Assembly (NCBI GenBank): GCA_033580815.1
Contig: JAVQUC010000002.1
Coordinates: 4,259-68,258 of the forward strand
Direction of reading: 5' to 3'
DNA length: 64,000 nt
DNA from: Candidatus Caldarchaeum sp.
GTDB taxonomy: Archaea; Thermoproteota; Nitrososphaeria_A; Caldarchaeales; Caldarchaeaceae
The number at the start of each line of letters is the position of its first letter. The first letter of the stretch is position 1. The notes under the pieces are model-generated. The model was not told where the DNA came from, did no database searches, and saw only the letters and a list, made by a program, of their open reading frames with translations. This document shows, piece after piece, positions 3,358 to 21,910 of the stretch. The translations under genes and the position numbers were made by a program.

Positions 3358-3831
3358 ATGGATGTTTTTAGCGCGGCGGAGGAGATCATGGAGAACGCGC
3401 TGGTCTCCTCCCTCAGCTACGTCACATCATCGGGTGAAGTTTCAACTCATCCGATGCTTCCGCTCTACAGCAGAGAAAGAAAGAAGCTGTACATGACCTC
3501 AAGCATACTGTTCAGCAAAAAAATCGAGCACATAAAGAGGAACCCTAAGGTCGGTGTGCTGTTTAGCGGCCGGCAGTTCATCAGAACACCAACCTACTCC
3601 GCTTTACATCTCAAAGGCGATGCAAAGATCTACGAGGAAGACCTTCACAAGGGCTGGGAATGGCTCGTCGACCTCTGGCGTAAGAAGGAACCCTACATCG
3701 ATTCTTTCCTCAAACAGCGAATAGCATTGCCGCTCTTCTGGGAACGCGTGATCATCGAAATCACTCCCCGTGAACTGCTGCTTTGGAAAGACGGCGACAT
3801 AAGCACAGAGCCGCTGAGGTGGAGGGCATGA
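3358..3831 (+). CDS. Pyridoxamine-5'-phosphate-oxidase-like (FMN-binding split-barrel) protein, 157 aa
   Basis: Size and motif pattern (…KRNPKVGVLFSG… HLKGDAKIYEED…) of the PNPOx-like family. Its stop TGA overlaps the ATG of the next gene (ATGA). Confidence 0.5.
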   Translation: MDVFSAAEEIMENALVSSLSYVTSSGEVSTHPMLPLYSRERKKLYMTSSILFSKKIEHIKRNPKVGVLFSGRQFIRTPTYSALHLKGDAKIYEEDLHKGWEWLVDLWRKKEPYIDSFLKQRIALPLFWERVIIEITPRELLLWKDGDISTEPLRWRA

Positions 3832-5150
3832 CGGTCGAACGAGAGCTGGAGGAATTCAGCGACGTAGTCGTTTCATACTTGGATGACGACGGCTATCCCA
3901 TGAGCTATTCGACAACGGCGAGGAAGCACGAGGGAAAACTAATCCTCGAAAAACCACCCTACCTTAAGGTTAAACCACGTGTTACCGTTTTGCTCAACCA
4001 CATAACACCACTCCCCACAGGAGGCTACACCGATCGAAGGTACGTCATGATGAGAGGGCGTGCAGAGGTCGAAAGACGAACGGTCTTATTCACGCCGGAG
4101 AAAACCTACGGCTGGGACGAAAAAACAAAGCCCTTCTTCCAATATTGCGAGGAAAGGGTGCCGCAGGCGAGGAGGTATCTCACGGTACTGAGTGAAAGCG
4201 TTGGACGCGTCATCAAGGCGCGGCTGCCGACTGTTCAACTGCTTTTCAGAGCAACGAGGTTCCCGTTTCTGACAGCGACCGTCGCTCCCGTTTTGATCGG
4301 CGTCGGCTCAGCGGCCTATCTGGGATTCTTCGACCCGATTCTCTTCATCCTTACGCTGGTCGGCGCTAGCCTCATCCACCTAGGCCTAAACATGACGAAC
4401 GACTACTATGACTCGAAGCTGGGAGCGGACGAAGCGAACATCACGCCAACACCGTTCAGTGGGGGGTCGAGAATGATCCAGTATGGCTTGCTGTCGCCGA
4501 GACAAGTTGCGACGGCAGCGGCTCTGTTCTATCTTTTCGGGGGATTGATAGGAGTTTTCCTTGCTTTGACCCGTGGTCTAATACCGGTTTTGACTGTGAT
4601 GGCCATCGGCATCTTCATCAGCTACGCCTACACCGCCCCGCCTTTCAAGCTCGCCTACAGAGGAATGGGAGAATTGGCCGTTGGCATAGGCTTCGGCCCC
4701 GTAATCGTACTCGGAAGCCACTACGTCCAAACTCAAACCTTCTCTTTAGAGGCCGCTGTAGCCTCTATTCCCATAGGCATAATGATAGCACTAATCCTGT
4801 ACATCAACGAAATACCCGACGCACCCTACGACACCGTAGCAGGCAAACGAACCATCGTGACAAGGCTTTCGAAACCCGCCGTGCTTACCTTGTACAAAAT
4901 TCTCCTCGGGCTGGCGTACGCGTTCATAGTTGGTTCTGTCGTGTCGGGTCTGGCTCCTCCGACGGTTTTGCTGGGTCTGCTGACGATTCCGAAAGCGGTC
5001 AAAACAGTTCGGCTTGTGTCACAGACTTACGGCAGTCCGTATTTGATGATTCCTGCTCTCGCATCAAACATCCAGGTTGCGACTTTGACAGGGTTTTTGA
5101 TGGCCGCTGGTTTCTTCCTCTGGGCTGTGGTGCGGCTGTTGTTGCCGTAA
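3828..5150 (+). CDS. Fusion protein: an N-terminal PNPOx-like soluble domain of about 130 aa joined to a UbiA-family aromatic/isoprenoid prenyltransferase with about 8 TM helices
   Basis: GGAGG Shine-Dalgarno sequence 8 nt upstream of the ATG at 3828. The C-terminal part carries the UbiA signature NDYYDSKLGAD (NDxxDxxxD) plus many TM helices. The N-terminal part (VVVSYLDDDGYPMSYS… VTVLLNH…) resembles a second split-barrel domain. Confidence 0.6.
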   Translation: MTVERELEEFSDVVVSYLDDDGYPMSYSTTARKHEGKLILEKPPYLKVKPRVTVLLNHITPLPTGGYTDRRYVMMRGRAEVERRTVLFTPEKTYGWDEKTKPFFQYCEERVPQARRYLTVLSESVGRVIKARLPTVQLLFRATRFPFLTATVAPVLIGVGSAAYLGFFDPILFILTLVGASLIHLGLNMTNDYYDSKLGADEANITPTPFSGGSRMIQYGLLSPRQVATAAALFYLFGGLIGVFLALTRGLIPVLTVMAIGIFISYAYTAPPFKLAYRGMGELAVGIGFGPVIVLGSHYVQTQTFSLEAAVASIPIGIMIALILYINEIPDAPYDTVAGKRTIVTRLSKPAVLTLYKILLGLAYAFIVGSVVSGLAPPTVLLGLLTIPKAVKTVRLVSQTYGSPYLMIPALASNIQVATLTGFLMAAGFFLWAVVRLLLP

Positions 5151-5187: not shown

Positions 5188-6264
5188 ATGGTGAGACGCA
5201 GAGCAGCTGCCAAACCAGCGTACATTGGTTCCCTCCGTGGCAGAGATTTCCTCAACACGAACGACTTCAGTCAGGAGGAAATTAACAACATCCTCAAAGC
5301 CGCAAGAGATTTGCGTGAAAAATTCAAAGCCCGTAAACCAACTGAGTACTTGAGAGGCCAAACGCTTTTCATGATCTTCTACAACCGCTCCCTCAGAACA
5401 CGCAACTCCTTCGAAGCGGGAATCTATCAACTTGGTGGTCACGCCCACTTCCTCAGCCCATCAGACGTCTACACACCAACCCTACCCGAAGATATGATCC
5501 CTTACCAAACGGAATCAATCGCTGATGTGGCCCGTGTTCTCAGCACATACGGTGACGCCATCGCCGTGAGAATCTACGGAGACGCGGCCAAATGGCATAT
5601 CGGAAGAGGCCACAGGGTTATTCAAGAGTTCGCGAAATGGAGTACCATTCCCGTTCTGAACATGGAAGACGACATCTACCATCCCTTCCAAGCGCTCGCA
5701 GACATGATGGCTATAACGGATGTAGCCCCAAAGCCGAGGGGTAAGAAATTCGTCGTCTCCTACGCCTACTCAGGAGGTCTTAAACCGCTTGCAGTCCCCC
5801 AAAGCTGTATTCTAATCGGAACACAGTTTGGGATGGATGTTGTGTTGGCTCATCCACCTGGGTTTGAGCTTGAAGACCACGTCATCCAGGCATGTAAGAA
5901 AAACGTGGAGCAGTACGGCGGCTCGTTCAAAATAACAAACAACATGAAGGAGGCTTTTGAGGGTGCAGACTTTGTTTATCCGAAGGCATGGTCGCCGAAA
6001 AAATTCTTCCCACCTTATAACAATACCGTTGACAAGGAGGGGGCAACTCGATACCAAGACGAGTTCAAGGCATGGATAACGACTCCGGAGCTGATGGACT
6101 TAACCAACAAGGGCAAATACATGCACTGCGGCCCAGCCGACAGAGGACAAGAGGTCGTCGACGAAGTCATCGACAACCCAAACTATTCACTATACTTTCA
6201 ACAAGCCGAAAACCGACTTCACGTCCAGAAGGCCGTGATGTCGATGACGATGGGAAAGAGATGA
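5188..6264 (+). CDS. OTC/ATC-superfamily transcarbamylase of unassigned specificity (358 aa), possibly YgeW/oxamate- or putrescine-carbamoyltransferase-like
   Basis: STRTRNSFE (carbamoyl-phosphate binding), HPFQALAD (HPxQ) and a C-terminal HCGPADRGQEV (HCLP-like) are present. The classical ornithine (DxxxSMG) and aspartate motifs are missing. It is a paralog of 10083..11102. Confidence 0.65.
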   Translation: MVRRRAAAKPAYIGSLRGRDFLNTNDFSQEEINNILKAARDLREKFKARKPTEYLRGQTLFMIFYNRSLRTRNSFEAGIYQLGGHAHFLSPSDVYTPTLPEDMIPYQTESIADVARVLSTYGDAIAVRIYGDAAKWHIGRGHRVIQEFAKWSTIPVLNMEDDIYHPFQALADMMAITDVAPKPRGKKFVVSYAYSGGLKPLAVPQSCILIGTQFGMDVVLAHPPGFELEDHVIQACKKNVEQYGGSFKITNNMKEAFEGADFVYPKAWSPKKFFPPYNNTVDKEGATRYQDEFKAWITTPELMDLTNKGKYMHCGPADRGQEVVDEVIDNPNYSLYFQQAENRLHVQKAVMSMTMGKR

Positions 6265-7289
6265 AAACAGGGGAAGACATCCTCGAGCTAATCGGTAACA
6301 CACCCCTTCTCCGACTCAGGAACATAGAGAAACACGCGGGCATCGAGTCGGAGCTCTGGGCCAAGCTTGAGTTTTACAACCCCTCGGGAAGCCTCAAAGA
6401 CCGGATATACCGCGAAATGATAACGAAGGCCATCGAAAGAGGAGATTTGAGGCCGGGGATGGAAATACTCGAAGTGTCGACTGGAAACGCGGGGATTGCG
6501 TGTTCTTTCGTCGGCTCCCACCTCGGATACAAGGTCACAATCGTCATGCCTGAAGGAATGAGCGAGGAGCGGAAGCAGCTCATCAAGGCGTTCGGCGGCC
6601 AGCTGGTTTTTACTCCCGGGGCAGAAAGCGATGTTGACATTAGCCTTAGGAAAGCGGAGGAGATGATGCAGCGGAACCCGGGGAAGTACTGGTTTCCCAA
6701 CCAATTCACCAACCCGGACAACATCCAAGCACACATCAAGACCACCGGCCCCGAAATATGGGAGCAGACCAAGGGCACCGTGGATTGTTTCGTGATGTCG
6801 CAGGGAAGCGGAGGAACAGTATCAGGAGTTGGTAAATTCCTCAAAGAGAAAAAACCCGGTGTGAAAATATACACGGTCGAACCGGCTGAAGCTCCGATAA
6901 TCAGCGAAGGAAGATGGGGGACTCACAGAATCGAAGGAATCGGAGACGGGTTCATCCCCCGCAACCTCGACCTTTCCGTATGTGACGGAGTGGTGACGAC
7001 GACTTCGGAGGAGGCAATAGAAACAGCGAGAACACTCGCCCGTCTGGAGGGAATATTCGGAGGAATTTCCTCCGGATGCAACGTAGCCGCGGCAGTGAAA
7101 GTTGCTAGGAAATACAAGAAGCTGAGAAAGATAGTAACTCTTATTTGCGACTCAGGCAACAGATACTTGTCCACCGAATTGTACGGTCCGGGTAAGAAAA
7201 CCGAAATCCCAGAGAGGGAACACCCGCTCGACGAGTACACGGTGAGGATGCGGGAAAAACACGCAAGCCGTCTCGAAGTGATAAGGTAA
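6261..7289 (+). CDS. PLP-dependent fold-type II enzyme of the cysteine synthase / cystathionine-beta-synthase family (342 aa)
   Basis: ATG at 6261 overlaps the upstream stop (ATGA). PLP-lysine motif SGSLKDR and glycine loop GSGGT are present. The longer ORF 6072..7289 in the track is an in-frame artefactual extension. Confidence 0.7.
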   Translation: MKTGEDILELIGNTPLLRLRNIEKHAGIESELWAKLEFYNPSGSLKDRIYREMITKAIERGDLRPGMEILEVSTGNAGIACSFVGSHLGYKVTIVMPEGMSEERKQLIKAFGGQLVFTPGAESDVDISLRKAEEMMQRNPGKYWFPNQFTNPDNIQAHIKTTGPEIWEQTKGTVDCFVMSQGSGGTVSGVGKFLKEKKPGVKIYTVEPAEAPIISEGRWGTHRIEGIGDGFIPRNLDLSVCDGVVTTTSEEAIETARTLARLEGIFGGISSGCNVAAAVKVARKYKKLRKIVTLICDSGNRYLSTELYGPGKKTEIPEREHPLDEYTVRMREKHASRLEVIR

Positions 7290-7295
7290 GCAGGA

Positions 7296-7793
7296 ATGGC
7301 GAGCTTCCATTTTGACGAAACCAACGGAGTCGCGTGGGACACCTACTTTGGCGGTCGTGTTTTGGTTCTTTCAGCCAAGCTTATCGGTGAGATGCGGAAG
7401 CTCTTGGCCGGCTCGACATCTGCTGCAGCGGCTGACGCTCTTCTCTGGCACATCGGAAAACGCTATGGTTTAGCGTTGTTGCAGAGAACAGTCGAGATGA
7501 AAAAGAAGCCGTTGGACAGCATAGCCCTACTCGCCGCAAGTGCGCAGAAATCTGGATGGGGCAAAATCTCAGTCGGAAACAAGGTCGATGTAGACCAAAC
7601 ATTCGAAATAGTTTTCGAGAACTGTGCTTTCTGCGAAGGAATCACGGGTGAAAAAAGTCCGTCGTGCTATTTTCTAGCGGGGATCTTGACAGGAATCGCC
7701 GAAGGATTGTTCGGTGAAGGATACAGCGCCAGAGAGACGGAATGCAGGTCTGTCCAAGGAAATGTCTGTCGTTTTTCAGTCGCGAAGTTTTAG
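7296..7793 (+). CDS. V4R (4-vinyl-reductase-like) small-molecule-binding domain protein, 165 aa
   Basis: Conserved Cys pattern CAFCEG … CYFLAGILTGI, typical of V4R/XylR-N-like domains. Confidence 0.5.
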   Translation: MASFHFDETNGVAWDTYFGGRVLVLSAKLIGEMRKLLAGSTSAAAADALLWHIGKRYGLALLQRTVEMKKKPLDSIALLAASAQKSGWGKISVGNKVDVDQTFEIVFENCAFCEGITGEKSPSCYFLAGILTGIAEGLFGEGYSARETECRSVQGNVCRFSVAKF

Positions 7794-7796
7794 CTG

Positions 7797-9056
7797 GTGC
7801 AGGGTTTGTTCGTGGAGAAGATGGTCTGTTCGAGATGCGGTGAATCCTACGACCCCCGTTCTAACCCTATAATGTGTAGAAATAACGACTTCGGCCGGTT
7901 GGATATCTACTATGACTATGACAAGGTCGCTGAATCTTTCAACCGCGCCGAGTTGAGCAAACGTCCTCCGCAGGGTGTATGGCGGTACTGGGAGTTGATG
8001 CCCGTCAACCGCAAGCATTCATCGCCTCTCGCCGAAGGTAACACGCCCCTTCTTAGGGCTTTCCGGCTTGGTCGTGAAATTGGGTTGAAAAACCTGTTCC
8101 TCAAGGACGACACTCGCAACCCGACGGCATCCTTTAAAGACCGGGCGATGTCGGTCGGCGCGGCGAAAGCCCTCGAGACGGGCAAGGTCAACGTGGTCAT
8201 AGCTTCCAGCGGGAACGCTGCATCCTCCTTGGCAGCCTATAGTGCGTCTCTGGGCCTTAACTGTACAGCTTTTGTTCCCGAAGACGTCTCGTTGGGAAAG
8301 GCTTCGCAACTCCTTCTCTACGGCGCCAGAGTTGTCAGGGTCAAGCAGGTTCGGGAGGGGCGCGACCCAACGGTCGAGTTGATGCTCCAGACTGTCCATG
8401 AGATGGGATGGTATCCATGCCCAAGCTTCGGACCCTTCAACCCCTATCAAGTCGAAGGCCCCAAAACAATAGCCTACGAAACAATCGAACAGCTAGAATG
8501 GACAATTCCCGATTTCGTGCTCATCCCCACAGGCTCGGGTTGTTTAGCCGCCGGGATATGGAAGGGCTTCAAAGACTTGAAGACACTGGGTCTGATCGAC
8601 GAATACCCAAAGATCGTCCCGGTCCAGCCTGAAGGAAACATGCCGTTGGTGAGAGCGATAAAGCAGCGCAAAAAATTTGAAGAAATAGAGCCAGAAAAAT
8701 GGCCCCGCTCCATAGCTTCAGGCCTTCTCGACCCCTATCCGTGGGATGGCGACGCAGTCATCGAAGGGGTGAACGCGACGAGAGGAACGGGGGAAACCGT
8801 GACCGAGACCGAAATCAGGGATTCCGTGAAAAAGCTCGCTAACCTTGAGGGTGTCTTCGCCGAACCATCCGGCGCTGTTGGAGTGGCCGCGGCACAGAAG
8901 CTGTTCCATCAAGGTGTAATCGATTCATCGGACGCGGTGGTCATCCTCGTCACCGGCTCGGGACTCAAGGAACCCGAAAAAATGGTCGCTGAGTCCAGCA
9001 TACCGCTGATAACACCGGATATCGAAGAATTCCGCAGACTTTTAGGAAAAAAGTGA
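7797..9056 (+). CDS. Threonine-synthase-like PLP enzyme with an N-terminal Zn ribbon (419 aa)
   Basis: N-terminal C-x2-C … C ribbon (MVCSRCGESY…C), PLP motif SFKDR and a TS-family glycine loop. Confidence 0.7.
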   Translation: MQGLFVEKMVCSRCGESYDPRSNPIMCRNNDFGRLDIYYDYDKVAESFNRAELSKRPPQGVWRYWELMPVNRKHSSPLAEGNTPLLRAFRLGREIGLKNLFLKDDTRNPTASFKDRAMSVGAAKALETGKVNVVIASSGNAASSLAAYSASLGLNCTAFVPEDVSLGKASQLLLYGARVVRVKQVREGRDPTVELMLQTVHEMGWYPCPSFGPFNPYQVEGPKTIAYETIEQLEWTIPDFVLIPTGSGCLAAGIWKGFKDLKTLGLIDEYPKIVPVQPEGNMPLVRAIKQRKKFEEIEPEKWPRSIASGLLDPYPWDGDAVIEGVNATRGTGETVTETEIRDSVKKLANLEGVFAEPSGAVGVAAAQKLFHQGVIDSSDAVVILVTGSGLKEPEKMVAESSIPLITPDIEEFRRLLGKK

Positions 9057-9083
9057 AATTCAAGCTTTATCGTTAACGGTTCT

Positions 9084-10076
9084 TTGAAGTTTTTATTACG
9101 GCGGGACTTGTCATCGCCCATGGATGGCGGAGAGCTTATCGTTGTCGCTTTAGGAGGTAACGCGTTGCTCAGGAGAGGGGACAAGGGCTCGTTCGAAGAA
9201 CAATATAGGAATGTTTCGGAGGCGGCACGCTACCTAGCCGACATCGTCGAAGCAGGCCACAAACTCGTCATCACACATGGCAACGGACCCCAAGTGGGAG
9301 CCACGCTTCTGAGACACGACGCCGGCCAGAAAATCCATGGGATACCGGCCTTCCCGATGGATGCATGCGGCGCCGAAACACAGGGATTAATCGGCTACAT
9401 CATACAGCAAAACCTACGCAACGAGCTCAAACGAAGGGGGATCGACAAATACGTAATCACGGTTGTGACGAGAGTCATCGTCGACAAAGACGACCCTGCC
9501 TTCAAAAACCCAACGAAGCCAATAGGCCCCTTTTACAAAAAAGAGGACCTGGACAAGCTAAAGGCCGAACATCCTGAATACGTCTTCGCCGAAGACAAGG
9601 CTCGCGGCGGATGGAGGCGAGTGGTTCCATCGCCCGACCCAAAAATCATAGCCGAAAGACACGCGATCAAAGCGTTGGTCGACGCGGGTTTCATCGTCGT
9701 CGCAAGCGGTGGGGGCGGCATCCCGATAATCGAGGAGAACGGAAGAGCATCCGGTGTTGAAGCGGTCGTAGACAAAGACCTAGCTGGAGAGAAGCTCGCC
9801 GAGCTGATCAAAGCCGACAGGTTCGTCATCCTGACTGACGTCGACGGAGCATACCTTAACTATGGAAAACCAGACCAGAAAAAGCTGGAAAAAGTGACGG
9901 CCGCTGAAGCGAGAAAATATCTCGAAGAGGGACATTTTGGCTCCGGCTCGATGTTGCCGAAGGTGCTCGCATGCATAAGGTTTGTGGAGTCTGGTGGAAA
10001 AGAGGCGATCATCGCAGAGCTATCGCAGTTCAAGGAGGCTTTCGCGGGAAAAGCCGGCACTCATTTCATTCGGTGA
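9084..10076 (+). CDS. arcC: Carbamate kinase. The true start is probably Met13 at 9120.
   Basis: [10 protein letters not shown] and THGNGPQVG motifs are diagnostic of carbamate kinase in the amino-acid kinase family. Length is about 315 aa. Confidence 0.85.
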
Positions 10077-10082
10077 AATTCT

Positions 10083-11102
10083 TCAGACTTTGCCGGCGAC
10101 GAGTGCGAGTATCGCGGCTCTCACATAGAGAAGGTTTTCGGCCTGGTCGTAAATGACGCTCCGAGGCCCGTCCATCACATCATCGTCAGCCTCCTGACCC
10201 CTGAAAACCGGTAAAACATGCGTGACGACACCGTGTTTGGACATCAAGTCCGTCAGTTCACGGGTAAGCTTCCAGTCCTTGTATTTGTTATGAAGCTCGA
10301 CTTCGCGTTCGCGGCCGAACCTGTTCATTCCGGTTAGGACGCATTCGTGGCTTGCCCAGCTCCGTGGGAAAACTGCGTCCGCGCCCTCTAAAGCTTCCCT
10401 GTAGTCGTGGGAGATTGATAGGCTGCCGCCGCTTTCTTCGGCGTTCTTCTTGGCAATCTTGACGATGTTCTCGTCGATGTCGAAGCCCGGCGGATAAGCG
10501 AGTACGACATCCATTCCGAACCTTGTCGCAATCAACATCTCATCCTGTATGCTGCCCCAGCTTCTGATCCTATCGCTGTAAGCCCACATCAACACATATT
10601 TTTTCTTCTCCACTTTGCCAAGCTTTTCCTTTAACGTGTAAAGGTCTGTTATTGCTTGGCTGGGATGGAACATGTCGTCGGCCATGTTGATGACGGGAAT
10701 TTTCGCATGTTCGGCGTATTCACGGACAACGGCGTTTCCTCTACCGTACACATAGTCGACGGCTGATTCGAGGATGCGGACGCCCAGAACGTGGCCGAGC
10801 CTTTCATACATCTTGGCTATGTCTTTGACCGCTTCTCCTTCAGCGCCGCGTGTCGTGGCAAAGTCGATGAACTGGGCGTGGCCTCCCAGCATCGTCGCCG
10901 CTGCTTCAAAGCTGGCCCTCGTCCTAGTGCTGGTGTTGTAGAAGAGCATGAACATGGTCCTGTTTTTGAAGAGCTCGGGAACGTTCCCGGCCGCCCTCCC
11001 GATTTTCAGGCTGCGCGCAAGCTCCATCGTCGCCGTGATCTCCTCGATTGTCCAATCTTGTGATGAGATGAGGTCCCTTCCGAAAAGCTCTGTCAGGGTC
11101 AT
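10083..11102 (-). CDS. Second OTC/ATC-superfamily transcarbamylase paralog (339 aa), of unassigned specificity
   Basis: STRTRASFE and HPSQ motifs. It shares the unusual WAYS…FGMDVVLAYPPGF segment with 5188..6264 and has a C-terminal HVLPVFRGQE. It lies convergent to carbamate kinase. Confidence 0.65.
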   Translation of the reverse strand: MTLTELFGRDLISSQDWTIEEITATMELARSLKIGRAAGNVPELFKNRTMFMLFYNTSTRTRASFEAAATMLGGHAQFIDFATTRGAEGEAVKDIAKMYERLGHVLGVRILESAVDYVYGRGNAVVREYAEHAKIPVINMADDMFHPSQAITDLYTLKEKLGKVEKKKYVLMWAYSDRIRSWGSIQDEMLIATRFGMDVVLAYPPGFDIDENIVKIAKKNAEESGGSLSISHDYREALEGADAVFPRSWASHECVLTGMNRFGREREVELHNKYKDWKLTRELTDLMSKHGVVTHVLPVFRGQEADDDVMDGPRSVIYDQAENLLYVRAAILALVAGKV

Positions 11103-11126: not shown

Positions 11127-13478
11127 TTATAGGTGTTTAGCTTTGTACAGTTCTTCGAGGACCCGTGATGGTTTAAGTGGGAGCTCCCGGATGTAAACTC
11201 CCGTCGCATTTGCCACCGCTCCGGCGATGGAAGCAGCTGGGAGAACGACAGGGATTTCGCCCATCGCTTTAGCGCCGAAGACACCGATGCTTCCTTTTAC
11301 CTCCACGATGATGCTGTGTATTTCCTGCGGTGCGTCGGATGCAGTGGGGATGACAAATCGGTGAAGGGATGGGTTGACGAGAACCCCTCCGTCGTGAACA
11401 ATTTCCTCCATCAAGGCGTATCCAAGACCCATTATGCTCCCGCCTTCGTAAGTCGCGACGAGACCCAGCGGGTTTATCGCACGGCCGACGTCGTAGGCTG
11501 CCGTCAGGCGGTCGACTTTCACCACCCCTGTCTCAGTGTCGACAGTAACTTCAGATATCAGGGCGCCGTACGTATACTGATTGTAGGGGGACCCTTGGCC
11601 TGTTTCGGGATCCCATTTGGTGGGAGGCGCGATGTAGTAGCCGACTGCTTTCAGCGGAACGTTCTCTTCAAAACATTGGTTTACGGCCTCTTGCCAGCTG
11701 ACTGATTTACCGTTTGCAGCTGATATCTTTCCGTGCTTAAATTCGAGGTCTGTCGGGTTGGTCGAAAGGGTTTTGGCCACTACGGATGCGATCGTGGCCC
11801 TGATTTTTAGAGCTGCGTCTAGCGCAGCTTGCCCGCCTATTACAGTTGTTCGGGATGCGACGGTCGGCCCGGAGTTGGGAACAGCAGCCGTGTCAGGTCT
11901 TTCGAGCTTCACCATCGAAATCGGTAGCCCGAGGGCCTCGGCGGTGACGATGGCGAGCGAAGTTAGAGCACCGGTTCCGTATTCAGTCAACCCGGTTTGA
12001 ACAACCACTTGCCCGCCCCTCTCCACACGTGTAACGACGTATGCGAAATCATCTCCTTCGGGACCCAGCGTGTTCCCGTGGTATAGGAGAGCGATCCCTA
12101 TACCCTTCTTTATCGAGGTGTTCCGTCGGTTGAACTCCTCGAATTCTCGGGCCTTTCTCCGGTATTCGCTGACTTCGACGGCTTGACGATAGCATCTGAC
12201 GAGGCCGTCGTCCTCGATTTTGTGGCTTGTCGCGGTGAGGGAACCGGGTTTCAGCATGTTGATTTCCCTTATTTCGAGAGGGGACATGTTAAGCTCCTCG
12301 GCGAGCTCGTTCATCGTCATCTCGGCGGCGAAATGAGCTTGTGGTGCGCCAAACCCACGGGTCGAACCAGCCATGGTGTTGTTGGTTATTACGCAGTAGC
12401 CGTCGGCCCAAACATTCGGCACTTCATACGGGCCGGTGCAGTGGAAAGTGGCGCGGCCTATCACTAGGTGGCCTTTTGAGATGTATGCGCCGGTGTCCTC
12501 GTAGAGGGTTGACTTCCAAGCAAGCAGCTTTCCGTTCTGGTCTGCTCCGACGACGTTCGTGATTTCGAAGGGATGTCTTTTGCATTGAACCGTCATCGCC
12601 TCCGCTCGGGTGAAAGCCGCGAGAGCGGGCTTTCCTGTATGGTAGGTCGCTAGGCAAGCGTAAGCAGCAACATCTATGGGTGTTTCGTCGCTTTTCGGCC
12701 CAAACCCTCCACCGGTAGCGGCCTGAACAACCCTCAGCCTATCGTTTGGAACACCGAGAATCCTAAGGACTTTGTTGTATACGTCGTGAAGGTTTTGCAT
12801 CGAGGAGATGCAGTTAATTCTTCCATCGCCGTCTATGAAGGAATACGCAATTTCTATCTCGAGCGGCAGCCCCGTGATAAACTGAGTTCTATAGGTTCTT
12901 TCAATAATGACGTCGGACTTCCTGAAGCCTTCTTCAACATCGCCCTTCCTGATTTTGAAATGAGTGAAGACATTGTCTCTGTCCTGCACGCGTGGTGCAT
13001 TGGGTTTTATCGCTTCACGAGGACTGGTGACCACGGGAAGCGGGTCATAAACAACCTCGACAAACTCCGCGGCCTCTTCTGCGTCCTCGACCGATTCTCC
13101 AACCACCAGCGCCACGGCTTCACCTATGTGGCGGACTTTGTCGAAGGCGAGTAGGGGCCTGTCGGAGATAAGGCTTCCACCGTCGTTGACGCCCGGAATA
13201 TCCTTTGCCGTAATGACTTTAACAACTCCCTTCCTTTTTTCGGCAGGGCTGTAATCGATTTTCCTGATGTATCCATGGGGGATGTTGGAGCGGACGGCCT
13301 TTACGAAAAGAGTTTTTTCAGCCACGAGGTCCGCTGTGTAGACAGGTTTTCCGAGGACTGCGTCGAGGGCGTCGACCCGAGCAACTTTTTTGCCGATGAC
13401 GAAAAACTCTCTCGCCTGAAGGATTTCGGCGAACCGTTTGAGGATTTCCTCACTCACCGTCTTCTCACCCTCTCCCAC
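11127..13478 (-). CDS. Molybdopterin-binding large subunit of a xanthine dehydrogenase / aldehyde oxidase-family molybdoenzyme (783 aa)
   Basis: Length and conserved blocks of the XdhA/CoxL family. It lies in an operon with 2Fe-2S and FAD subunits. Confidence 0.8.
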   Translation of the reverse strand: MGEGEKTVSEEILKRFAEILQAREFFVIGKKVARVDALDAVLGKPVYTADLVAEKTLFVKAVRSNIPHGYIRKIDYSPAEKRKGVVKVITAKDIPGVNDGGSLISDRPLLAFDKVRHIGEAVALVVGESVEDAEEAAEFVEVVYDPLPVVTSPREAIKPNAPRVQDRDNVFTHFKIRKGDVEEGFRKSDVIIERTYRTQFITGLPLEIEIAYSFIDGDGRINCISSMQNLHDVYNKVLRILGVPNDRLRVVQAATGGGFGPKSDETPIDVAAYACLATYHTGKPALAAFTRAEAMTVQCKRHPFEITNVVGADQNGKLLAWKSTLYEDTGAYISKGHLVIGRATFHCTGPYEVPNVWADGYCVITNNTMAGSTRGFGAPQAHFAAEMTMNELAEELNMSPLEIREINMLKPGSLTATSHKIEDDGLVRCYRQAVEVSEYRRKAREFEEFNRRNTSIKKGIGIALLYHGNTLGPEGDDFAYVVTRVERGGQVVVQTGLTEYGTGALTSLAIVTAEALGLPISMVKLERPDTAAVPNSGPTVASRTTVIGGQAALDAALKIRATIASVVAKTLSTNPTDLEFKHGKISAANGKSVSWQEAVNQCFEENVPLKAVGYYIAPPTKWDPETGQGSPYNQYTYGALISEVTVDTETGVVKVDRLTAAYDVGRAINPLGLVATYEGGSIMGLGYALMEEIVHDGGVLVNPSLHRFVIPTASDAPQEIHSIIVEVKGSIGVFGAKAMGEIPVVLPAASIAGAVANATGVYIRELPLKPSRVLEELYKAKHL

Positions 13479-13909
13479 GCCTCTTCAAACCTTATGTAGC
13501 TACCGCACCTACAAAGGACGGTTCTCAGCGCGTGTCTTACCTCTTGCTTCGTCGCCGTGGGTTTTTCGTCGTAGAGGTGTTTGAGAACGAGGAGCGCGGC
13601 CGGTATGCAGAAGCCGCATTGGACGGCGCCGACGTCGATGAAGGCTTGCTGCAGCGGATGAAGTTTCCCACCGTCACCCAACGCTTCGACCGTGGTGATT
13701 TTTAGGCCGTCCACGCGATAAGCTAGGACGAGGCACGAATTGACGGGTTTTCCATCGACCAATACGATGCAGAGCCCGCAGTCACCTGTGCCGCATCCCT
13801 GTTTGACGCTGACCAACCGCAGCTTGTTACGGAGAACGTCGCTAAGCCTCTCATTAGGCTCTACATCCACCGAATACCTGACCCCGTTAACCTCAAAATC
13901 GACTTTCAA
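13454..13909 (-). CDS. [2Fe-2S] small subunit of the molybdo-dehydrogenase (XdhC/CoxS-like), about 151 aa
   Basis: CGTGDCGLC and CGFCIPA cluster motifs. The likely TTG start (MKVDFEVNG…) overlaps the stop of the FAD subunit. The tracked ORF is N-terminally over-extended. Confidence 0.8.
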   Translation of the reverse strand: MKVDFEVNGVRYSVDVEPNERLSDVLRNKLRLVSVKQGCGTGDCGLCIVLVDGKPVNSCLVLAYRVDGLKITTVEALGDGGKLHPLQQAFIDVGAVQCGFCIPAALLVLKHLYDEKPTATKQEVRHALRTVLCRCGSYIRFEEAWERVRRR

Positions 13910-14742
13910 ACGGCACCACCCACAGACCGCTGCAAAAGCCTTTCCAACAAAACCCCAGCCACCTTCTTCCGGTACCAAGATGACGCAAAGACATCGTCTA
14001 CCGGGTTAATCGACTTCGAAAGAAGTTCACCTGCTTTCTCAATGTTTTCCTTTGTCAGAGGCCTGTTTTCGAGGAATTTCTCAACCGAGAAGACCCTTCC
14101 CGGGGTCTCGAAGTCTTTATGGGAAACTGCAACCTTGATGTTCTTTCCGCTCACATCGACGGAAACAGACATCAACGGAAACCTTGATATCCCCATCCAG
14201 AGCTTGTCAAACCAACAGCCAGCGCTCAGCCGGAACGAAACAAACTCCAAGAGTCCTCTAATTTCTAACTTTCGCCGCAAAAACTCGTCAAGGGAAACTC
14301 TTTTTTGCCCCTCCTTGGTTGCGAAGATAAGTTCTGCGTCGAGTGTCAGCAGAATCGGTATGATGTCCTCGGTCGCTCTTTTGAGCATGATGCTTCCCCC
14401 CGTTGTAGCTAGGTAGGACACAGCGGGTGATGAATAGTTCTGGAAAAATGTGTGAAAAGCCGGGATCTGTTTACCGAAGGTCGAAGCCAATTGATGATGC
14501 GTAACGAGTGCTCCGACATTCGCTCTACCGTCAGCCACAACAACGTTCTTCAGTTCGCGGATTTTGCCTATGTCGACGAACTTGCGGGTTCGTCTTTCCC
14601 CGGTCGTTAAGGATGTGATGATTTCTGTTCCCGCGGCCATGATTTCTCTCTCCGGCTCGTCGTCAAGAGCCTTCAAGGCCTGATCCACAGTCTCGGCGAC
14701 CACCACATCTATCCTCGGAATGTTCAAATAGCCGATGATCAT
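13906..14742 (-). CDS. FAD-binding medium subunit of the molybdo-dehydrogenase (XdhB/CoxM-like), 278 aa
   Basis: Typical N-terminus and FAD-binding PCMH-type domain. It overlaps both neighbouring genes. Confidence 0.75.
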   Translation of the reverse strand: MIIGYLNIPRIDVVVAETVDQALKALDDEPEREIMAAGTEIITSLTTGERRTRKFVDIGKIRELKNVVVADGRANVGALVTHHQLASTFGKQIPAFHTFFQNYSSPAVSYLATTGGSIMLKRATEDIIPILLTLDAELIFATKEGQKRVSLDEFLRRKLEIRGLLEFVSFRLSAGCWFDKLWMGISRFPLMSVSVDVSGKNIKVAVSHKDFETPGRVFSVEKFLENRPLTKENIEKAGELLSKSINPVDDVFASSWYRKKVAGVLLERLLQRSVGGAV

Positions 14743-16106
14743 GGTCTCAGCCTCAATGGCTCAACAGCTTCTGAGGGCTCTTCTCCGAGTCTGAGCCAGA
14801 GCTTTTCGACCGTCTTCACGACCGTCGACTCGGCTTTTTCCTTATCAACCTTGGTCAACTGCCTGTTCTCCACGACCTGAACGCCGTCGACGAAAACCTG
14901 TTCAACGTCTCCCCCCTTCACGCCGTTAACCAAATAGCCATAAACATTCCTGTCGATAGGAGTGGCGCAAACTTCGGGTCTTACAACGATGATATCAGCT
15001 CTTTTCCCCAGCTCGAGCGAGCCCAACGATGATAAGCCGTAGGCCTTCGCGGCGTTGACTGTCGCCATCTCAACGACCGTCTGAGGAGAAAGCACGGAAG
15101 GGTCTCTTCGTTCCACGCGGTGTATCAGAAAGGCGGTGCGCATGTTCTCGAACCCGTCGAAAACGTATCCGTCGTTGCCCAAGCCGACGTTGACCCCGGC
15201 CTCAAGCATCTCGGGAAGCTTCATCACACCGACGGCGTTCAACATGTTGCTCATTGGGTTGTGAGCCACGTGCGTACCAGTCGACGCCAGCAGTTGGATT
15301 TCACGTCTGTTTAGGTGAACGCAGTGGGCGAGTACAGAGAATGGCCCTAGTAGACCGGTCTGATGGAGCCTTTCCACAGTCCTTTTTCCATATCTTTCGA
15401 TGTTGTGGTAGACGTCGTTGAGGCCCTCGGAGACGTGAATTGTCAAGGGGGCGTTGAATTTTTTGGCTATGTCGATGCCTCTCGCGATGAGGTCGTCGCT
15501 TACCGTGAAGGAGGCGTGAAGACTCACCATACCTTTTGCAAGACCAACACCACCTCTTTCGAGAAACCGCACGTTCTCATCTAATCCTCTCCTTCCCTCG
15601 TCGACGCTTCTTCTTTCAGTTGCCTCAAAAGAGATCAGCCCTCTTATGCCGACTTCGTTGACGGCTTTGGCTATTGCGTCAAGGCTGCCTTCTGGATTTG
15701 ATGGGGCAGAATAGGTGTCGGCGAAAGTGGTTGTGCCGTTTAGAACCATCTCCATGCATGCAGCTAAGGCGGTTGCGTAGGCGTCGTCGTTGTTCATTTG
15801 TTCGTCGAGAGGCCACCAAATCCGTTGAAGGTTTTCGAGAAAATCTGTCGTGGGCCGAATGCGTAAGGCCGCTCCCCTTAAGGCGATGCCGTAGAGATGG
15901 GTGTGGGCGCAGATGAGTCCAGGCATCACGAACTTTCCGGAAACATCGATGACCCGGTCGAATCGACTTGCTCTTCCGACATCGCCGTTTTTCCCGACAA
16001 AAGTTATCACGCCATCTTCAAACCCGACTGCTCCGTCGACGATGACCCTCCGAACCGAATCCATTGTAACGATAACGCCGCCCTTGAGCAGAACCGAGTC
16101 CGGCAC
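14739..16106 (-). CDS. Amidohydrolase-superfamily deaminase/chlorohydrolase (SsnA / guanine-deaminase-like), 455 aa
   Basis: HTHL metal-binding motif near the N-terminus and the typical length. It lies in an operon with the xdh genes. Confidence 0.65.
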   Translation of the reverse strand: MPDSVLLKGGVIVTMDSVRRVIVDGAVGFEDGVITFVGKNGDVGRASRFDRVIDVSGKFVMPGLICAHTHLYGIALRGAALRIRPTTDFLENLQRIWWPLDEQMNNDDAYATALAACMEMVLNGTTTFADTYSAPSNPEGSLDAIAKAVNEVGIRGLISFEATERRSVDEGRRGLDENVRFLERGGVGLAKGMVSLHASFTVSDDLIARGIDIAKKFNAPLTIHVSEGLNDVYHNIERYGKRTVERLHQTGLLGPFSVLAHCVHLNRREIQLLASTGTHVAHNPMSNMLNAVGVMKLPEMLEAGVNVGLGNDGYVFDGFENMRTAFLIHRVERRDPSVLSPQTVVEMATVNAAKAYGLSSLGSLELGKRADIIVVRPEVCATPIDRNVYGYLVNGVKGGDVEQVFVDGVQVVENRQLTKVDKEKAESTVVKTVEKLWLRLGEEPSEAVEPLRLRP

Positions 16107-16109
16107 GAG

Positions 16110-17111
16110 CTAAACCTCCGCGATGCTCTTGATTAGGTATTCTGGGTCTCCGCTCAAAGGTAGCAGGAGCGGCGAAGTGCATCCATGAGCCATGTATTCC
16201 TTGACCTTTGACACCACGTCTGAAACGGTTCCGGAGGCGCTTATCATTCTGACTATGTCGTCGGGAACGATTTCTGTCGCCTTCTCTATTCCGCCCGGTT
16301 TCGCAGGCCAGCCACCCATGATGCGTTGTACTTCATGAATCAAGTCTTCGCTCACTCCGCTTGCTTTCATGATGTGCGGCTGCTGGCCCAAAGTCATGGT
16401 CACGTGTTTTTTGGCGAGTTTCACAGCCTTATCGGCATCAGGATGCACCGAGCAAGCTATTAATTGCGGCCTGTCTATGTCCTCGAGCCTCCGCCCTGCT
16501 CTTGCTGCACCGATCTTTATGTGTTCCAGCGCTGTGTCGTTGTATTTGGGGGAGACGAGGTAGTTGAGGAGTACTCCGTCGCCGATTTCTCCAGCTAGCT
16601 CCATCATCTTCCATCCGGTAGCACCGATGTAAATGGGGATGTTTCGGGGTTTCTCTCCAGCGCCGTGTAGAACGTCCAAACGAACACCTCGCATTTTCAC
16701 AAACTTTCCTTCAAACGTCACCTCCTCCATGCGGAAAAGCCTGCGAATTACTTCGACGTATTCCCGCATGCATTTAAGAGGCTCGGTCCTCTCTATCCCA
16801 ACCTTCCAAGCAAGCGGGTCCCACCAAGCACCAAGTCCGAGAATAACACGTCCATCGCTCAATTCATCCATCGTCGCGAAAGTCTGAGCGATGAGGGCGG
16901 CGTTACGGGTCCAAGTGTTTATCACACCAGCTCCAACCTTGATTTTGGAAGTGACTGTTGCGATTGCGGTCATGGGAGTCAACGCATCTCTTGCCAGACG
17001 TGATTCGGCTACCCATGCCGATTCGAAATCGTAACGCTCGGCGAGCTGAGCATAACGTACCATCTCACGGACATGCATGTCTTGAAGATATAGACCCCAG
17101 CGAACATCCAT
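16110..17111 (-). CDS. Luciferase-like (LLM) flavin/F420-dependent oxidoreductase, 333 aa
   Basis: TIM-barrel LLM family features (…GLGAWWDP…). First gene of the minus-strand operon. Confidence 0.6.
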   Translation of the reverse strand: MDVRWGLYLQDMHVREMVRYAQLAERYDFESAWVAESRLARDALTPMTAIATVTSKIKVGAGVINTWTRNAALIAQTFATMDELSDGRVILGLGAWWDPLAWKVGIERTEPLKCMREYVEVIRRLFRMEEVTFEGKFVKMRGVRLDVLHGAGEKPRNIPIYIGATGWKMMELAGEIGDGVLLNYLVSPKYNDTALEHIKIGAARAGRRLEDIDRPQLIACSVHPDADKAVKLAKKHVTMTLGQQPHIMKASGVSEDLIHEVQRIMGGWPAKPGGIEKATEIVPDDIVRMISASGTVSDVVSKVKEYMAHGCTSPLLLPLSGDPEYLIKSIAEV

Positions 17112-17199: not shown

Positions 17200-18987
17200 A
17201 TGAACGCGAGGACAAAGCTACACCTCGTAACTCGTAATCTTGTGAGAACCGCCTTGGGTTTAGAGAAGGCAGACCTTGTGGTCAAAGGTGGTAATCTGGT
17301 TAACGTTCACACCAGGGAAATAATGGAGAACGTTGATGTTGCGGTTCGGTTTGGAAGGGTTGTGTTGGTCGGTGACGCCGACCCTTGCATCGGAGCCGAT
17401 ACGTTTGTCTACGATGCGTCGGAGAAGTTTGTCGTGCCCGGGTTGTTAGACCCACACGTCCACATCGAAAGCTCCATGGTTGTGGTCACTGAATTTGCGC
17501 GAATAGTTCTCCCACACGGAACCACGACGGTGTTTGTCGACCCTCACGAAATTGGGAACGTCTTTGGCCTTGAAGGCGTGAAACTTATGATAGAAGAGTC
17601 AAAAAATCTTCCCTTGAAAGTTTTCATAACGTATCCGTCGTGCGTGCCTGCGGCTCCGGGGTTTGAGACTGCAGGCGCTCATGTGGGGCCGGCGGAAATA
17701 GCGGAGGCGATGAAGTTTGAGGAGGTGATTGCTCTAGGTGAGATGATGAATTTCCCTGGAGTGCTGTCTTGCGATGAAATTGTTCACGCCGAAATAGCTG
17801 AAACCCTCAAAGCCGGTAAGCTGGTCGAAGGACATGATTCCGGCCTTCTTGGCCGGGAGTTGACAGCATACGTGGCCGCCGGGATTACTTCCACACATGA
17901 AAGCGTGACCAAAAGACAGGCCTTGGAAAGGCTGAGGAACGGCATGTACGTCTACCTCCGAGAGGGAAGTGCCTGGCTTGACATCAAGGATACAATAAGG
18001 GCTTACACGGAGACTGGAATAGACCCGCGGCACATCTGTTTATGCACTGACGATAAGGAGCCTGCGTCGATTCTACGCGACGGACACGTCGACCACTGCG
18101 TCCGAAGAGCCATCCAAGAGGGGGTTGACCCTCTGACGGCCATACAGATGGCGACCATAAACCCGGCGGAAAGGTATCGTCTCTCCTACGAGATAGGGAG
18201 CATAGCTCCTGCGAGGATTGCGGACATTCTTGTTATTTCCGATTTGACGAAGTTTCAGGTTGAAGCTGTTTTCGCCGACGGAGAACTTGTGGCCGAAAAC
18301 GGAAAGATGGTTAAGCAGCTTCCAAGCTACAGTTACCCGGAGAAATTCATGAAGAGTGTGAAACTCTCGAGGCCTTTGAAGCCTGAGGATTTTGTGATTC
18401 GGAACGACCGGGAGGGTGAGCAACTGCGTGTTAGGGTTATTCAGGCAATTGAAGGCAGCGTGCTCACCAAGCATCTCATCGACCGCCTCGAGGTCTCCAA
18501 AAACGTCATCCAACCGGATCCCGACAGGAGTATAATGAAGATAGCGGTCATCGAAAGACACGGGAAAACAGGAAACATTAGCCTCGGTTTCACAAAGGGC
18601 TTCGGCTTCAGGGAGGGGGCGGTTTCATCGACGGTGGCGCACGACAGCCACAACTTGATGGTTCTTGGGTATGATGAAAAAGACATGGCTTTGGCGGCTA
18701 ACGAGAACGCGCGGATAGGCGGAGGAATTGTCACAGTAGCGGACGGAAAAATTCTGTCGCGGGTCGAGCTACCTCTTGCGGGGTTGATGTCCACAGAGCC
18801 GGCGGACAAAGTAGCTGAAAAACTCAGCAAAACCTACGAAACATGGCGGAAGCTCGGCTGCGAATGGGTTTCGCCGTTCATGACGATGTCTTTGCTAAGC
18901 TTGAGTGTTATTCCGGAGCTTCGGTTGACCGACAAAGGACTCCTAGACACTGTGACCTTCCAATTCGTAAACTTGATCATCGATTGA
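17200..18987 (+). CDS. ade: Adenine deaminase (595 aa)
   Basis: LLDPHVHIESSMV motif and the length are characteristic of the amidohydrolase-family adenine deaminase. Confidence 0.8.
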   Translation: MNARTKLHLVTRNLVRTALGLEKADLVVKGGNLVNVHTREIMENVDVAVRFGRVVLVGDADPCIGADTFVYDASEKFVVPGLLDPHVHIESSMVVVTEFARIVLPHGTTTVFVDPHEIGNVFGLEGVKLMIEESKNLPLKVFITYPSCVPAAPGFETAGAHVGPAEIAEAMKFEEVIALGEMMNFPGVLSCDEIVHAEIAETLKAGKLVEGHDSGLLGRELTAYVAAGITSTHESVTKRQALERLRNGMYVYLREGSAWLDIKDTIRAYTETGIDPRHICLCTDDKEPASILRDGHVDHCVRRAIQEGVDPLTAIQMATINPAERYRLSYEIGSIAPARIADILVISDLTKFQVEAVFADGELVAENGKMVKQLPSYSYPEKFMKSVKLSRPLKPEDFVIRNDREGEQLRVRVIQAIEGSVLTKHLIDRLEVSKNVIQPDPDRSIMKIAVIERHGKTGNISLGFTKGFGFREGAVSSTVAHDSHNLMVLGYDEKDMALAANENARIGGGIVTVADGKILSRVELPLAGLMSTEPADKVAEKLSKTYETWRKLGCEWVSPFMTMSLLSLSVIPELRLTDKGLLDTVTFQFVNLIID

Positions 18988-20322: not shown

Positions 20323-20362
20323 ACTTCCTTTAAAACCCATAAATTTTTTCCGCATAATTCAA

Positions 20363-21907: not shown

Positions 21908-21910
21908 CGA

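Follow-up and report, generated by a model that had tools for sequence, protein, structure and literature searches.

What two divergent transcarbamylases would do side by side in one archaeal locus was the question raised by a 64,000-nucleotide stretch of a Candidatus Caldarchaeum sp. genome (assembly GCA_033580815.1, contig JAVQUC010000002.1, positions 4,259 to 68,258 of the forward strand), referred to in the following as the window. The two paralogs, TC1 and TC2, are encoded on either side of a carbamate kinase gene; carbamate kinases make ATP from carbamoyl phosphate and ADP. Rather than a new kind of system, the cluster that contains them is a variant of a pathway reported from gut bacteria in 2025, the reductive urate pathway. 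Our preferred reading, held with moderate confidence, is that TC1 and TC2 would each phosphorolyze one ureido group of 2,3-diureidopropionate in an archaeal version of this pathway, with TC2 replacing the hydrolase YgeY and a predicted yield of two ATP.

The reductive urate pathway of gut bacteria was described in two papers from 2025 and one commentary. Urate is reduced by XdhD to 2,8-dioxopurine, which is dearomatized by YgfK, by UacX in C. difficile, or in Chloroflexota by a putative F420 luciferase-family enzyme (PMC12507026). SsnA and HyuA each open one ring, yielding 2,3-diureidopropionate. YgeW then phosphorolyzes one ureido group, and the carbamate kinase YqeA uses the carbamoyl phosphate for ATP; the remaining ureido group is hydrolyzed by YgeY, an M20 enzyme, and the diaminopropionate is converted to pyruvate by YgeX. 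The two founding papers disagree on which ureido group YgeW attacks and which is cleaved first. The published survey of the pathway's distribution was limited to bacteria and took any protein with an OTCace domain (PF00185) to be "YgeW". In our literature search, we found no description of an archaeal cluster or of a design with paired transcarbamylases and no YgeY.

Motifs and family membership of TC1 and TC2

Both open reading frames (ORFs) have exactly the coordinates and lengths given in a preliminary description of the locus (358 and 339 residues). The proteins contain the OTCace_N and OTCace Pfam domains (E ≈ 1e-35 to 1e-41) and are full-length transcarbamylases that keep SxRT, HPxQ and the β4 arginine, all invariant across the two clades described below. 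Their mutual identity is 38% (E = 1e-87), a closer match than either has to any solved structure.

The motif reading of the preliminary description held in part. The carbamoyl-phosphate motif, given as STRTR for both proteins, is STRTR in TC2, but reads SLRTR in TC1, a SOTCase-like form that is invariant in 40/40 members of the TC1 clade. HPxQ is present as noted (HPFQ in TC1, HPSQ in TC2), and HCGP in TC1 and HVLP in TC2 do stand where HCLP would be expected; within the TC1 clade this position has Gly in 10/40 members and HCLP in 30/40. The segment WAYS…FGMDVVLA(H/Y)PPGF, in contrast, had been taken as the replacement of the DxxxSMG motif through a misalignment. This segment, (S/W)YAYS...FGMDVVLA(H/Y)PPGF, is the start of the C-terminal domain, with the insertion that holds the proline-rich loop in knotted transcarbamylases. 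The true counterparts of DxxxSMG are YPKAWSP in TC1 and FPRSWAS in TC2, in which the Asp is changed to Lys or Arg and SMG is gone. The proline-rich-loop insertion of TC1 reads YSGGLKPLAVPQ, with two prolines and a YgeW-like motif (KPLAVPQ), while that of TC2 reads YSDRIRSWGSIQ, with no proline and the sequence RSWGSIQ, which does not match the YgeW motif. Neither DxxxSMG nor an aspartate transcarbamylase (ATCase)-type second-substrate motif was found in the alignment, and the absence of classical ornithine and aspartate motifs, on which the preliminary description had let its case depend, was thus borne out.

For assignment to a family, residue criteria from a 2015 review of the transcarbamylases were applied to an alignment of 118 sequences. 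Neither protein reached the curated NCBIfam cutoffs for ornithine (OTCase), aspartate, N-acetylornithine (AOTCase) or putrescine transcarbamylase (PTCase) or for YgeW. The nearest family was AOTCase (NF003384, cutoff 288 bits), with 283 bits for TC1 and 227 bits for TC2. However, the AOTCase residues Glu92/Asn185/Lys302/Trp77 read Thr/Lys/Glu/Thr in TC1 and gap/Arg/Glu/gap in TC2; the substrate anchors E144 and K252 are E and K in TC1, and A and R in TC2. The ATCase scores were 116 and 125 bits against a cutoff of 237, and the RxQxER motif was not visible in the 240's-loop alignment. Matches to the B. fragilis SOTCase chains were weak, at 75–91 bits.

The AlphaFold models of TC1 and TC2 had mean confidence scores (pLDDT) of 91 and 95, respectively, and their best solved structural neighbors were AOTCases, with template modeling (TM) scores of 0.85–0.87; TC2 also matched an E. 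faecalis YgeW homolog with a TM score of 0.88. In addition, both proteins have an extended 120's loop, an insertion of AOTCase length that is absent from OTCase. The prediction and alignment proposed in the preliminary description thus gave confident models with AOTCases and, for TC2, a YgeW homolog as neighbors, and the PTCase and OTCase signatures and the long 240's loop of YgeW were not found.

The near match to AOTCase bears on an anabolic alternative, in which the carbamate kinase would act as a carbamoyl-phosphate synthetase, as in Pyrococcus, and TC1 and TC2 would carbamoylate ornithine or N-acylornithine for arginine synthesis or give a product derived from diaminopropionate. Arginine synthesis is what the names given in public annotations ("ornithine carbamoyltransferase" and "N-acetylornithine carbamoyltransferase") imply, and an anabolic role is in line with the best family score of TC1, the anabolic archaeal carbamate kinases reported in PMC6022934, and the CysK/SbnA-like enzyme encoded nearby. 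However, the four residues that define AOTCase are absent, as are DxxxSMG and the OTCase Lys of FxKxSxRT, and the conserved neighbors are purine-catabolic; no arginine-biosynthesis genes were seen among the annotated neighbors, with no arg-gene queries run. We consider the anabolic role very improbable.

We give even less credence to the idea of TC1 and TC2 as catabolic enzymes of the OTCase or PTCase type, serving an arginine-deiminase or agmatine-deiminase pathway. The adjacent carbamate kinase is what such a pathway would have, but the scores of ≈207–233 bits fall well short of cutoffs of 281–500 bits. For OTCase, TC1 scored 232 and TC2 207 bits against cutoffs of 281–306, DxxxSMG is missing, and the Lys position of FxKxSxRT is Asn. 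For PTCase, which the preliminary description had named as a possible type, the scores were 210 and 207 bits against 500 (TIGR04384), and the Gln position of FxQxSxRT is likewise Asn. No deiminase was found among the annotated neighbors in the window; the related loci were not queried for one. The oxamate type, the other identity that had been suggested, was set aside, since oxamate transcarbamylase is reported to be AllFGH (PMC11326118), which is unrelated.

There remains the description of TC1 and TC2 as YgeW-like transcarbamylases of unknown kind. Their specificity is indeed unassigned, they are related to the knotted AOTCase/YgeW group, and their gene context is of the YgeW type, but they fall outside the YgeW family proper. 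They scored 147–158 bits against cutoffs of 453 (NF005538) and 500 (TIGR03316), are 30–32% identical to E. coli YgeW, and do not match its Q160/K203/K270 pocket (E/K/K in TC1, A/R/R in TC2). The extended 240's-loop and post-HCLP insertions of YgeW are absent from the alignment of both proteins, which are 358 and 339 residues long compared to 396 for YgeW. Nor is YgeW itself still an unknown: since 2025, it has had an assigned role in the reductive urate pathway, the cleavage of diureidopropionate.

Clades, pockets and co-occurrence with pathway genes

A bootstrapped neighbor-joining tree of the 118 transcarbamylases separated a TC2 clade (n = 32, bootstrap 100) from a TC1 clade (n = 40, bootstrap 73). 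Outside these two fell 34 bacterial proteins, referred to in the following as clade B, and a small YgeW clade. The branching order of the TC1, TC2, B, YgeW and AOTCase groups was unsupported (bootstraps 4–57). The TC1, TC2, B and YgeW groups are all found amid genes for SsnA, xanthine dehydrogenase (XDH), YgfK or a luciferase-like (LLM) oxidoreductase, HyuA, carbamate kinase, and CysK-like and ThrC-like pyridoxal phosphate (PLP) enzymes.

Each of the two new clades has its own pocket. At the positions of YgeW Q160/K203/K270, YgeW and clade B have Q/K/K (Q in 34/34 clade B members), the TC1 clade has E/K/K (E in 39/40), and the TC2 clade has A/R/R (32/32). These near-invariant, clade-specific residues, the tight pairing of the genes and the mutual exclusion of TC2 and YgeY described below support the earlier suggestion that the two paralogs handle two different carbamoylated substrates in one pathway.

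The distribution was surveyed in 160 loci. Half of these came from species-representative genomes and were centered on TC1, and their ORFs were searched with the proteins of the window cluster and of the E. coli pathway. Because this sample was centered on TC1, the scan was repeated with a TC2-only profile on metagenome contigs, yielding the other 80 loci. The latter include many close relatives, falling into 54 clusters at 95% identity but only 10 at 85%.

The pairing of TC1 and TC2 is more than chance, recurring in 24 of the genome loci. These belong to several phyla of archaea and bacteria, with the pair present in Caldarchaeales, Nitrososphaerales, Bathyarchaeia, Desulfurococcaceae, Asgard archaea, Bipolaricaulota, metagenome-assembled genomes (MAGs) labeled Thermotogae, and Anaerolineae. 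In most of the bacterial pair loci, the two genes were adjacent and co-directional, with gaps of 1–27 nt. A YgeY ortholog was found in 0/24 of these loci. In total, no genome locus had both TC2 and YgeY, while 24 had TC2 without YgeY and 23 had YgeY without TC2 (Fisher p = 2.7e-5, with no phylogenetic correction). The 23 YgeY loci had a single clade B or YgeW transcarbamylase with a YgeY of 38–59% identity, as is usual in single-transcarbamylase clusters, and none contained TC2. Two candidates for a hidden YgeY were rejected: the M20 protein of Bipolaricaulota is an ArgE/DapE-family deacylase (176 bits with the YgeY model against a cutoff of 321), and that of Bathyarchaeia is peptidase T.

The metagenome loci had purine markers in 62/80 cases, a HyuA-type hydantoinase in 15/80, carbamate kinase in 28/80 and any M20 match in 0/80, and in most of the purine-marked loci TC2 directly followed the XDH operon. 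The set was complete on long Nitrososphaerales contigs, which carry an XDH set on the opposite strand, then TC1, the CysK-like and ThrC-like genes, a second XDH set, TC2, a permease, the LLM reductase and the SsnA-like gene, followed by the hydantoinase, a second amidohydrolase and carbamate kinase. Compared to the E. coli pathway, only YgeY and YgeX are unmatched, and the only surplus is one transcarbamylase and the two PLP enzymes. Five contigs of the Nitrososphaerales type (L107, L126, L143, L156 and L161) have two complete XDH sets and two SsnA-like amidohydrolases, and between TC2 and the LLM reductase they encode an APC-family permease and an unannotated 294-residue protein.

These loci also bear on the alternative that only one paralog, most likely TC1, acts on diureidopropionate, while TC2 phosphorolyzes an unrelated carbamoyl compound and shares the carbamate kinase, the second ureido group being removed by some other hydrolase. 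The substrate of TC2 could then be N-carbamoyl-β-alanine from pyrimidines, for example, or another ureido acid. TC1 does share the KPL(A/S)VPQ loop and two lysines with YgeW, TC2-only modules without purine genes occur (L003, L005), the Bathyarchaeia have a TC2, carbamate kinase, TC1 module with no purine neighbors, and some clusters with both paralogs include an ArgE/DapE-type M20 protein that might be such a hydrolase. The purine markers in most TC2-centered loci, the position of TC2 directly after the XDH operon and the mutual exclusion of TC2 and YgeY argue against a separate substrate; that no pyrimidine-catabolism genes were seen is a weak argument, since the query set had no dedicated probes for them. 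We consider a different TC2 substrate unlikely, but rank it as the most plausible of the alternatives, ahead of a hetero-oligomer, the anabolic role and a classical catabolic OTCase or PTCase, in that order.

In the hetero-oligomer alternative, TC1 and TC2 would form mixed or stacked trimers for a single substrate, one subunit being catalytic and the other structural or regulatory. The close spacing of the bacterial genes would suit such an arrangement, active sites in this family lie at subunit interfaces (PMC4581275), and TC2 of the window has no equivalent of the carbamoyl-phosphate-binding R322. On the other hand, TC2 keeps all other carbamoyl-phosphate-binding residues and has an invariant pocket triad of its own, as would be expected if selection had acted on catalysis. 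Furthermore, TC1-only and TC2-only loci exist, and the archaeal genes lie on different operons or strands. Taken together, these observations make a hetero-oligomer quite improbable in our view.

The CysK-like and ThrC-like PLP enzymes occur together with the transcarbamylase in many purine clusters of archaea and bacteria (L009, L010, L046, L048, L055, L107 and others). YgeX is nearly absent from such clusters (1/34 clade B loci), and one or both of the PLP enzymes probably replace it. A different second transcarbamylase, which groups with the reference OTCase and ATCase sequences in the tree, was observed in the bacterial purine clusters L082 (9027–11900), L056 and L086. In L082, an Actinomycetota purine cluster, it lies beside a YgeW-type enzyme and carbamate kinase, and YgeY is absent; a pseudo-ATCase is also known to adjoin a YgeW homolog in Nocardioides (PMC4016543). 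The two-transcarbamylase design seems to have arisen independently in L082.

The purine-gene cluster of the window

The genes for TC1, the CysK-like enzyme, the V4R protein, the ThrC-like enzyme and carbamate kinase on the plus strand converge on those for TC2, the three XDH subunits, the SsnA-like amidohydrolase and the LLM oxidoreductase on the minus strand (Table 1). From the order and identities of their neighbors, TC1 and TC2 lie at the ends of two convergent purine-catabolic operons. The window thus contains the gene set of a reductive urate cluster: an XDH-family enzyme, an SsnA-like hydrolase, an F420-type LLM reductase, the transcarbamylases and a carbamate kinase. The kinase does lie between the paralogs, as the preliminary description said, but as one of four intervening genes and not the only one. 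No homologs of HyuA, YgeY, YgeX or YgfK were found in the window by tblastn. TC2 is 92–93% identical to proteins of Candidatus Caldarchaeum MAGs, and the gene order is kept in a Caldarchaeum MAG locus (L070).

Table 1. Genes of the window, with positions counted from its first nucleotide and family scores in bits
Feature	Position	Strand	Remarks
157-residue ORF	3358–3831	+	
MenA/UbiA-type prenyltransferase	3783–5150	+	
TC1	5188–6264	+	358 residues; knotted-type (AOTCase/YgeW-like) transcarbamylase; SLRTR, NMEDD, HPFQ, KPLAVPQ loop, YPKAW, HCGP
CysK-like fold-type II PLP enzyme	6261–7289	+	TIGR01139, 364 vs 351; recurs in TC1 clusters
V4R-domain protein	7296–7793	+	165 residues; PF02830; small-molecule-binding or regulatory domain; kept in Caldarchaeum-type clusters
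ThrC-like PLP enzyme	7797–9056	+	N-terminal Cys-rich stretch; recurs in archaeal and bacterial TC clusters
Carbamate kinase	9084–10076	+	TIGR00746, 432 vs 358; 46% identical to E. coli YqeA
TC2	10083–11102	-	339 residues; second transcarbamylase paralog; STRTR, NMADD, HPSQ, RSWGSIQ loop, FPRSW, HVLP
XDH-family molybdopterin subunit	11127–13478	-	
XDH [2Fe-2S] subunit	13454–13978	-	
XDH FAD-binding subunit	13906–14742	-	
SsnA-like amidohydrolase (purine ring opening)	14739–16106	-	NF005540, 362 vs cutoff 444; SsnA is the best family; 31% identical to E. coli SsnA
F420-type LLM oxidoreductase	16110–17111	-	Candidate YgfK substitute (2,8-dioxopurine reductase)
Adenine deaminase (pathway entry)	17200–18987	+	TIGR01178, 567 vs 472.5
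BMP-family ABC transporter (substrate-binding protein, ATPase, two permeases)	19021–23955	+	Probably nucleoside or purine uptake
Canonical threonine synthase, thrC	59631–60773	+	TIGR00260, 271 vs 167; 34% identical to the ThrC-like protein of the cluster

The mechanically called ORF of the CysK-like gene starts at an ATG at 6072, inside TC1. Since the family alignment begins at the Met encoded at 6261, the ATG at 6261 is the likely start; it overlaps the TC1 stop codon (ATGA), which suggests translational coupling. The V4R gene lies between the CysK-like and ThrC-like genes in Caldarchaeum. The presence of a second, canonical thrC in the window, only 34% identical, suggests that the ThrC-like copy in the cluster is a specialized paralog.

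The LLM gene is directly upstream of the SsnA-like gene. Copies of the LLM protein, 53–60% identical, were found in SsnA clusters of Actinomycetota, Armatimonadota, a Velamenicoccus MAG and a Halobacteriales MAG. Members of this family had been observed in clusters of Chloroflexota, where a role as 2,8-dioxopurine reductase was only guessed (PMC12507026). In archaea, the candidate reductase has so far been unreported.

The window is archaeal by its other genes as well, encoding an archaeal-type PEP carboxylase, a PcrB-family (GGGP-synthase-type) protein, a primase small subunit, an archaeal CCA-adding enzyme and an archaeal-type helicase. The MenA/UbiA-type prenyltransferase has an N-terminal extension of ≈150 residues, and its ORF overlaps the 3' end of that of the 157-residue protein, for which there was no family match.

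Proposed pathway and comparison with known systems

From the gene content and the pocket residues, we propose the following route. Purines would be fed in and converted by the adenine deaminase and XDH, and the F420-type LLM reductase and SsnA-like hydrolase would carry out the dearomatization and ring opening. A hydantoinase encoded outside the window would then produce 2,3-diureidopropionate. TC1 and TC2, in our reading both catalytically competent and working in the catabolic direction, would each remove one ureido group by phosphorolysis from this compound, or from closely related intermediates, TC2 in the role played by the YgeY hydrolase in E. coli. The carbamate kinase encoded between them would turn the two carbamoyl phosphates into two ATP, compared to one in E. 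coli. Finally, 2,3-diaminopropionate would be deaminated by the ThrC-like enzyme, the CysK-like enzyme or both, in place of YgeX. As to the order, we tentatively favor TC1 for the first cleavage, followed by TC2: of the two, TC1 resembles YgeW more closely, in its loop motif and both lysines, and L005 is a minimal module of TC2, carbamate kinase and the ThrC-like enzyme.

Several observations weigh against this proposal. The scores of the SsnA-like and XDH proteins fall short of the curated equivalog cutoffs, and no hydantoinase gene was found by tblastn in the window. In the Candidatus Caldarchaeum host, either HyuA is encoded elsewhere in the genome or another amidohydrolase substitutes for it; relatives with a hydantoinase in the cluster include a Caldarchaeales locus (L008, 445 bits versus 393) and two of Nitrososphaerales (L107, L143). 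The active sites also deviate from the expected pattern. TC1 has Gly in place of the strained Leu of HxLP, although Gly could adopt the unusual backbone angles of that residue. TC2 of the window has Leu (motif AENLLY) at the position of the carbamoyl-phosphate-binding Arg (R322 in AOTCase, R319 in E. coli OTCase), where the TC2 clade has Arg in 20, Leu in 7 and Gly in 4 members; the change could lower the affinity for carbamoyl phosphate, which might suit a phosphorolytic enzyme. Furthermore, the co-occurrence of TC2 and YgeY was scored without regard to shared ancestry. Not every locus has the pair: some have TC1 only or TC2 only, among them the Conexivisphaerales, with ThrC-like, TC2 and carbamate kinase genes and no TC1 within 10 kb, and the Bathyarchaeia module of TC2, carbamate kinase and TC1 lacks nearby purine genes. 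Lastly, the ArgE/DapE-type M20 deacylase that lies beside TC1/TC2 in six Bipolaricaulota/Thermotogae loci could still hydrolyze a ureido group.

A broader form of the proposal, which we regard as about evenly balanced between right and wrong, is that of a fully phosphorolytic branch, in which two families, one specific for the 2-ureido and one for the 3-ureido group, replace YgeW and YgeY, and the fermentation of each purine provides 2 ATP. The A/R/R pocket of TC2 would then mark a new functional family of transcarbamylases, and the cluster would be the first reductive, F420-linked urate pathway to be described from archaea. If true, the branch is also present in Asgard archaea, Bathyarchaeia, Bipolaricaulota, Thermotogae-labeled MAGs and Anaerolineae, and the pathway as a whole reaches several archaeal phyla and deep-branching bacteria. 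New assignments would be needed for hundreds of genes that now carry the names "ornithine carbamoyltransferase" or "N-acetylornithine carbamoyltransferase", and two enzymes with distinct pockets, one per ureido group, would offer a clean system for the disputed regiochemistry.

Among known enzymes, E. coli YgeW (YTCase, which works with YqeA) belongs to the same superfamily and, by loop criteria, to the same knotted-type branch. Its neighbors include carbamate kinase, XDH and SsnA, like those of TC1 and TC2, for which a similar catabolic, ATP-yielding role is predicted, and TC1 shares its KPL(A/S)VPQ loop and the equivalents of K203 and K270. In contrast, TC1 and TC2 have no extended 240's loop or terminal helices, and their 120's loop is five residues longer; Q160 is replaced by Glu in TC1 and by Ala in TC2, which also has Arg for both lysines, and the two are paired, without YgeY. 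The Xanthomonas campestris AOTCase (PDB 3KZK and related entries) is the best sequence match of TC1 and the best structural match of both proteins. TC1 shares with it the extended 120's loop, a long 80's loop, the E144 and K252 equivalents and a hydrophobic second residue in SxRT, but E92 is changed to Thr and K302 to Glu, and W77 and N185 are gone. In addition, the sequence after the HCLP position of the TC proteins is OTCase-like (ADRGQEV), and their context is purine catabolism with carbamate kinase, not arginine biosynthesis.

The clade B clusters of Acidobacteriota, Woeseiaceae, Planctomycetota and others have the same pathway genes, with the CysK-like and ThrC-like enzymes and often the LLM reductase. 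They differ in having the Q/K/K pocket of YgeW and a single transcarbamylase together with a YgeY ortholog (44–59% identical to that of E. coli), and never TC2. For a transcarbamylase acting on a purine-derived diureido compound, and for a second transcarbamylase beside a YgeW homolog, the ureidoglycine carbamoyltransferase and the pseudo-ATCases of Rubrobacter and Nocardioides provide a precedent, although these belong to the ATCase branch and their origin is unrelated to that of TC2. In the UacY variant of C. difficile, the ureido group that YgeW would cleave is removed by hydrolysis, showing that the de-ureidation modules are interchangeable; both of its steps are hydrolytic and yield no ATP, whereas both appear to be phosphorolytic in the TC1/TC2 cluster. 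Swappable de-ureidation steps would fit the pattern made up of the C. difficile hydrolase in place of YgeW and the ATCase-like second transcarbamylase of some Actinomycetota. If our reading of TC1 and TC2 is true, the three systems form a series in ATP yield, from none with two hydrolases (C. difficile), through one with a transcarbamylase and a hydrolase (E. coli), to two with two transcarbamylases.

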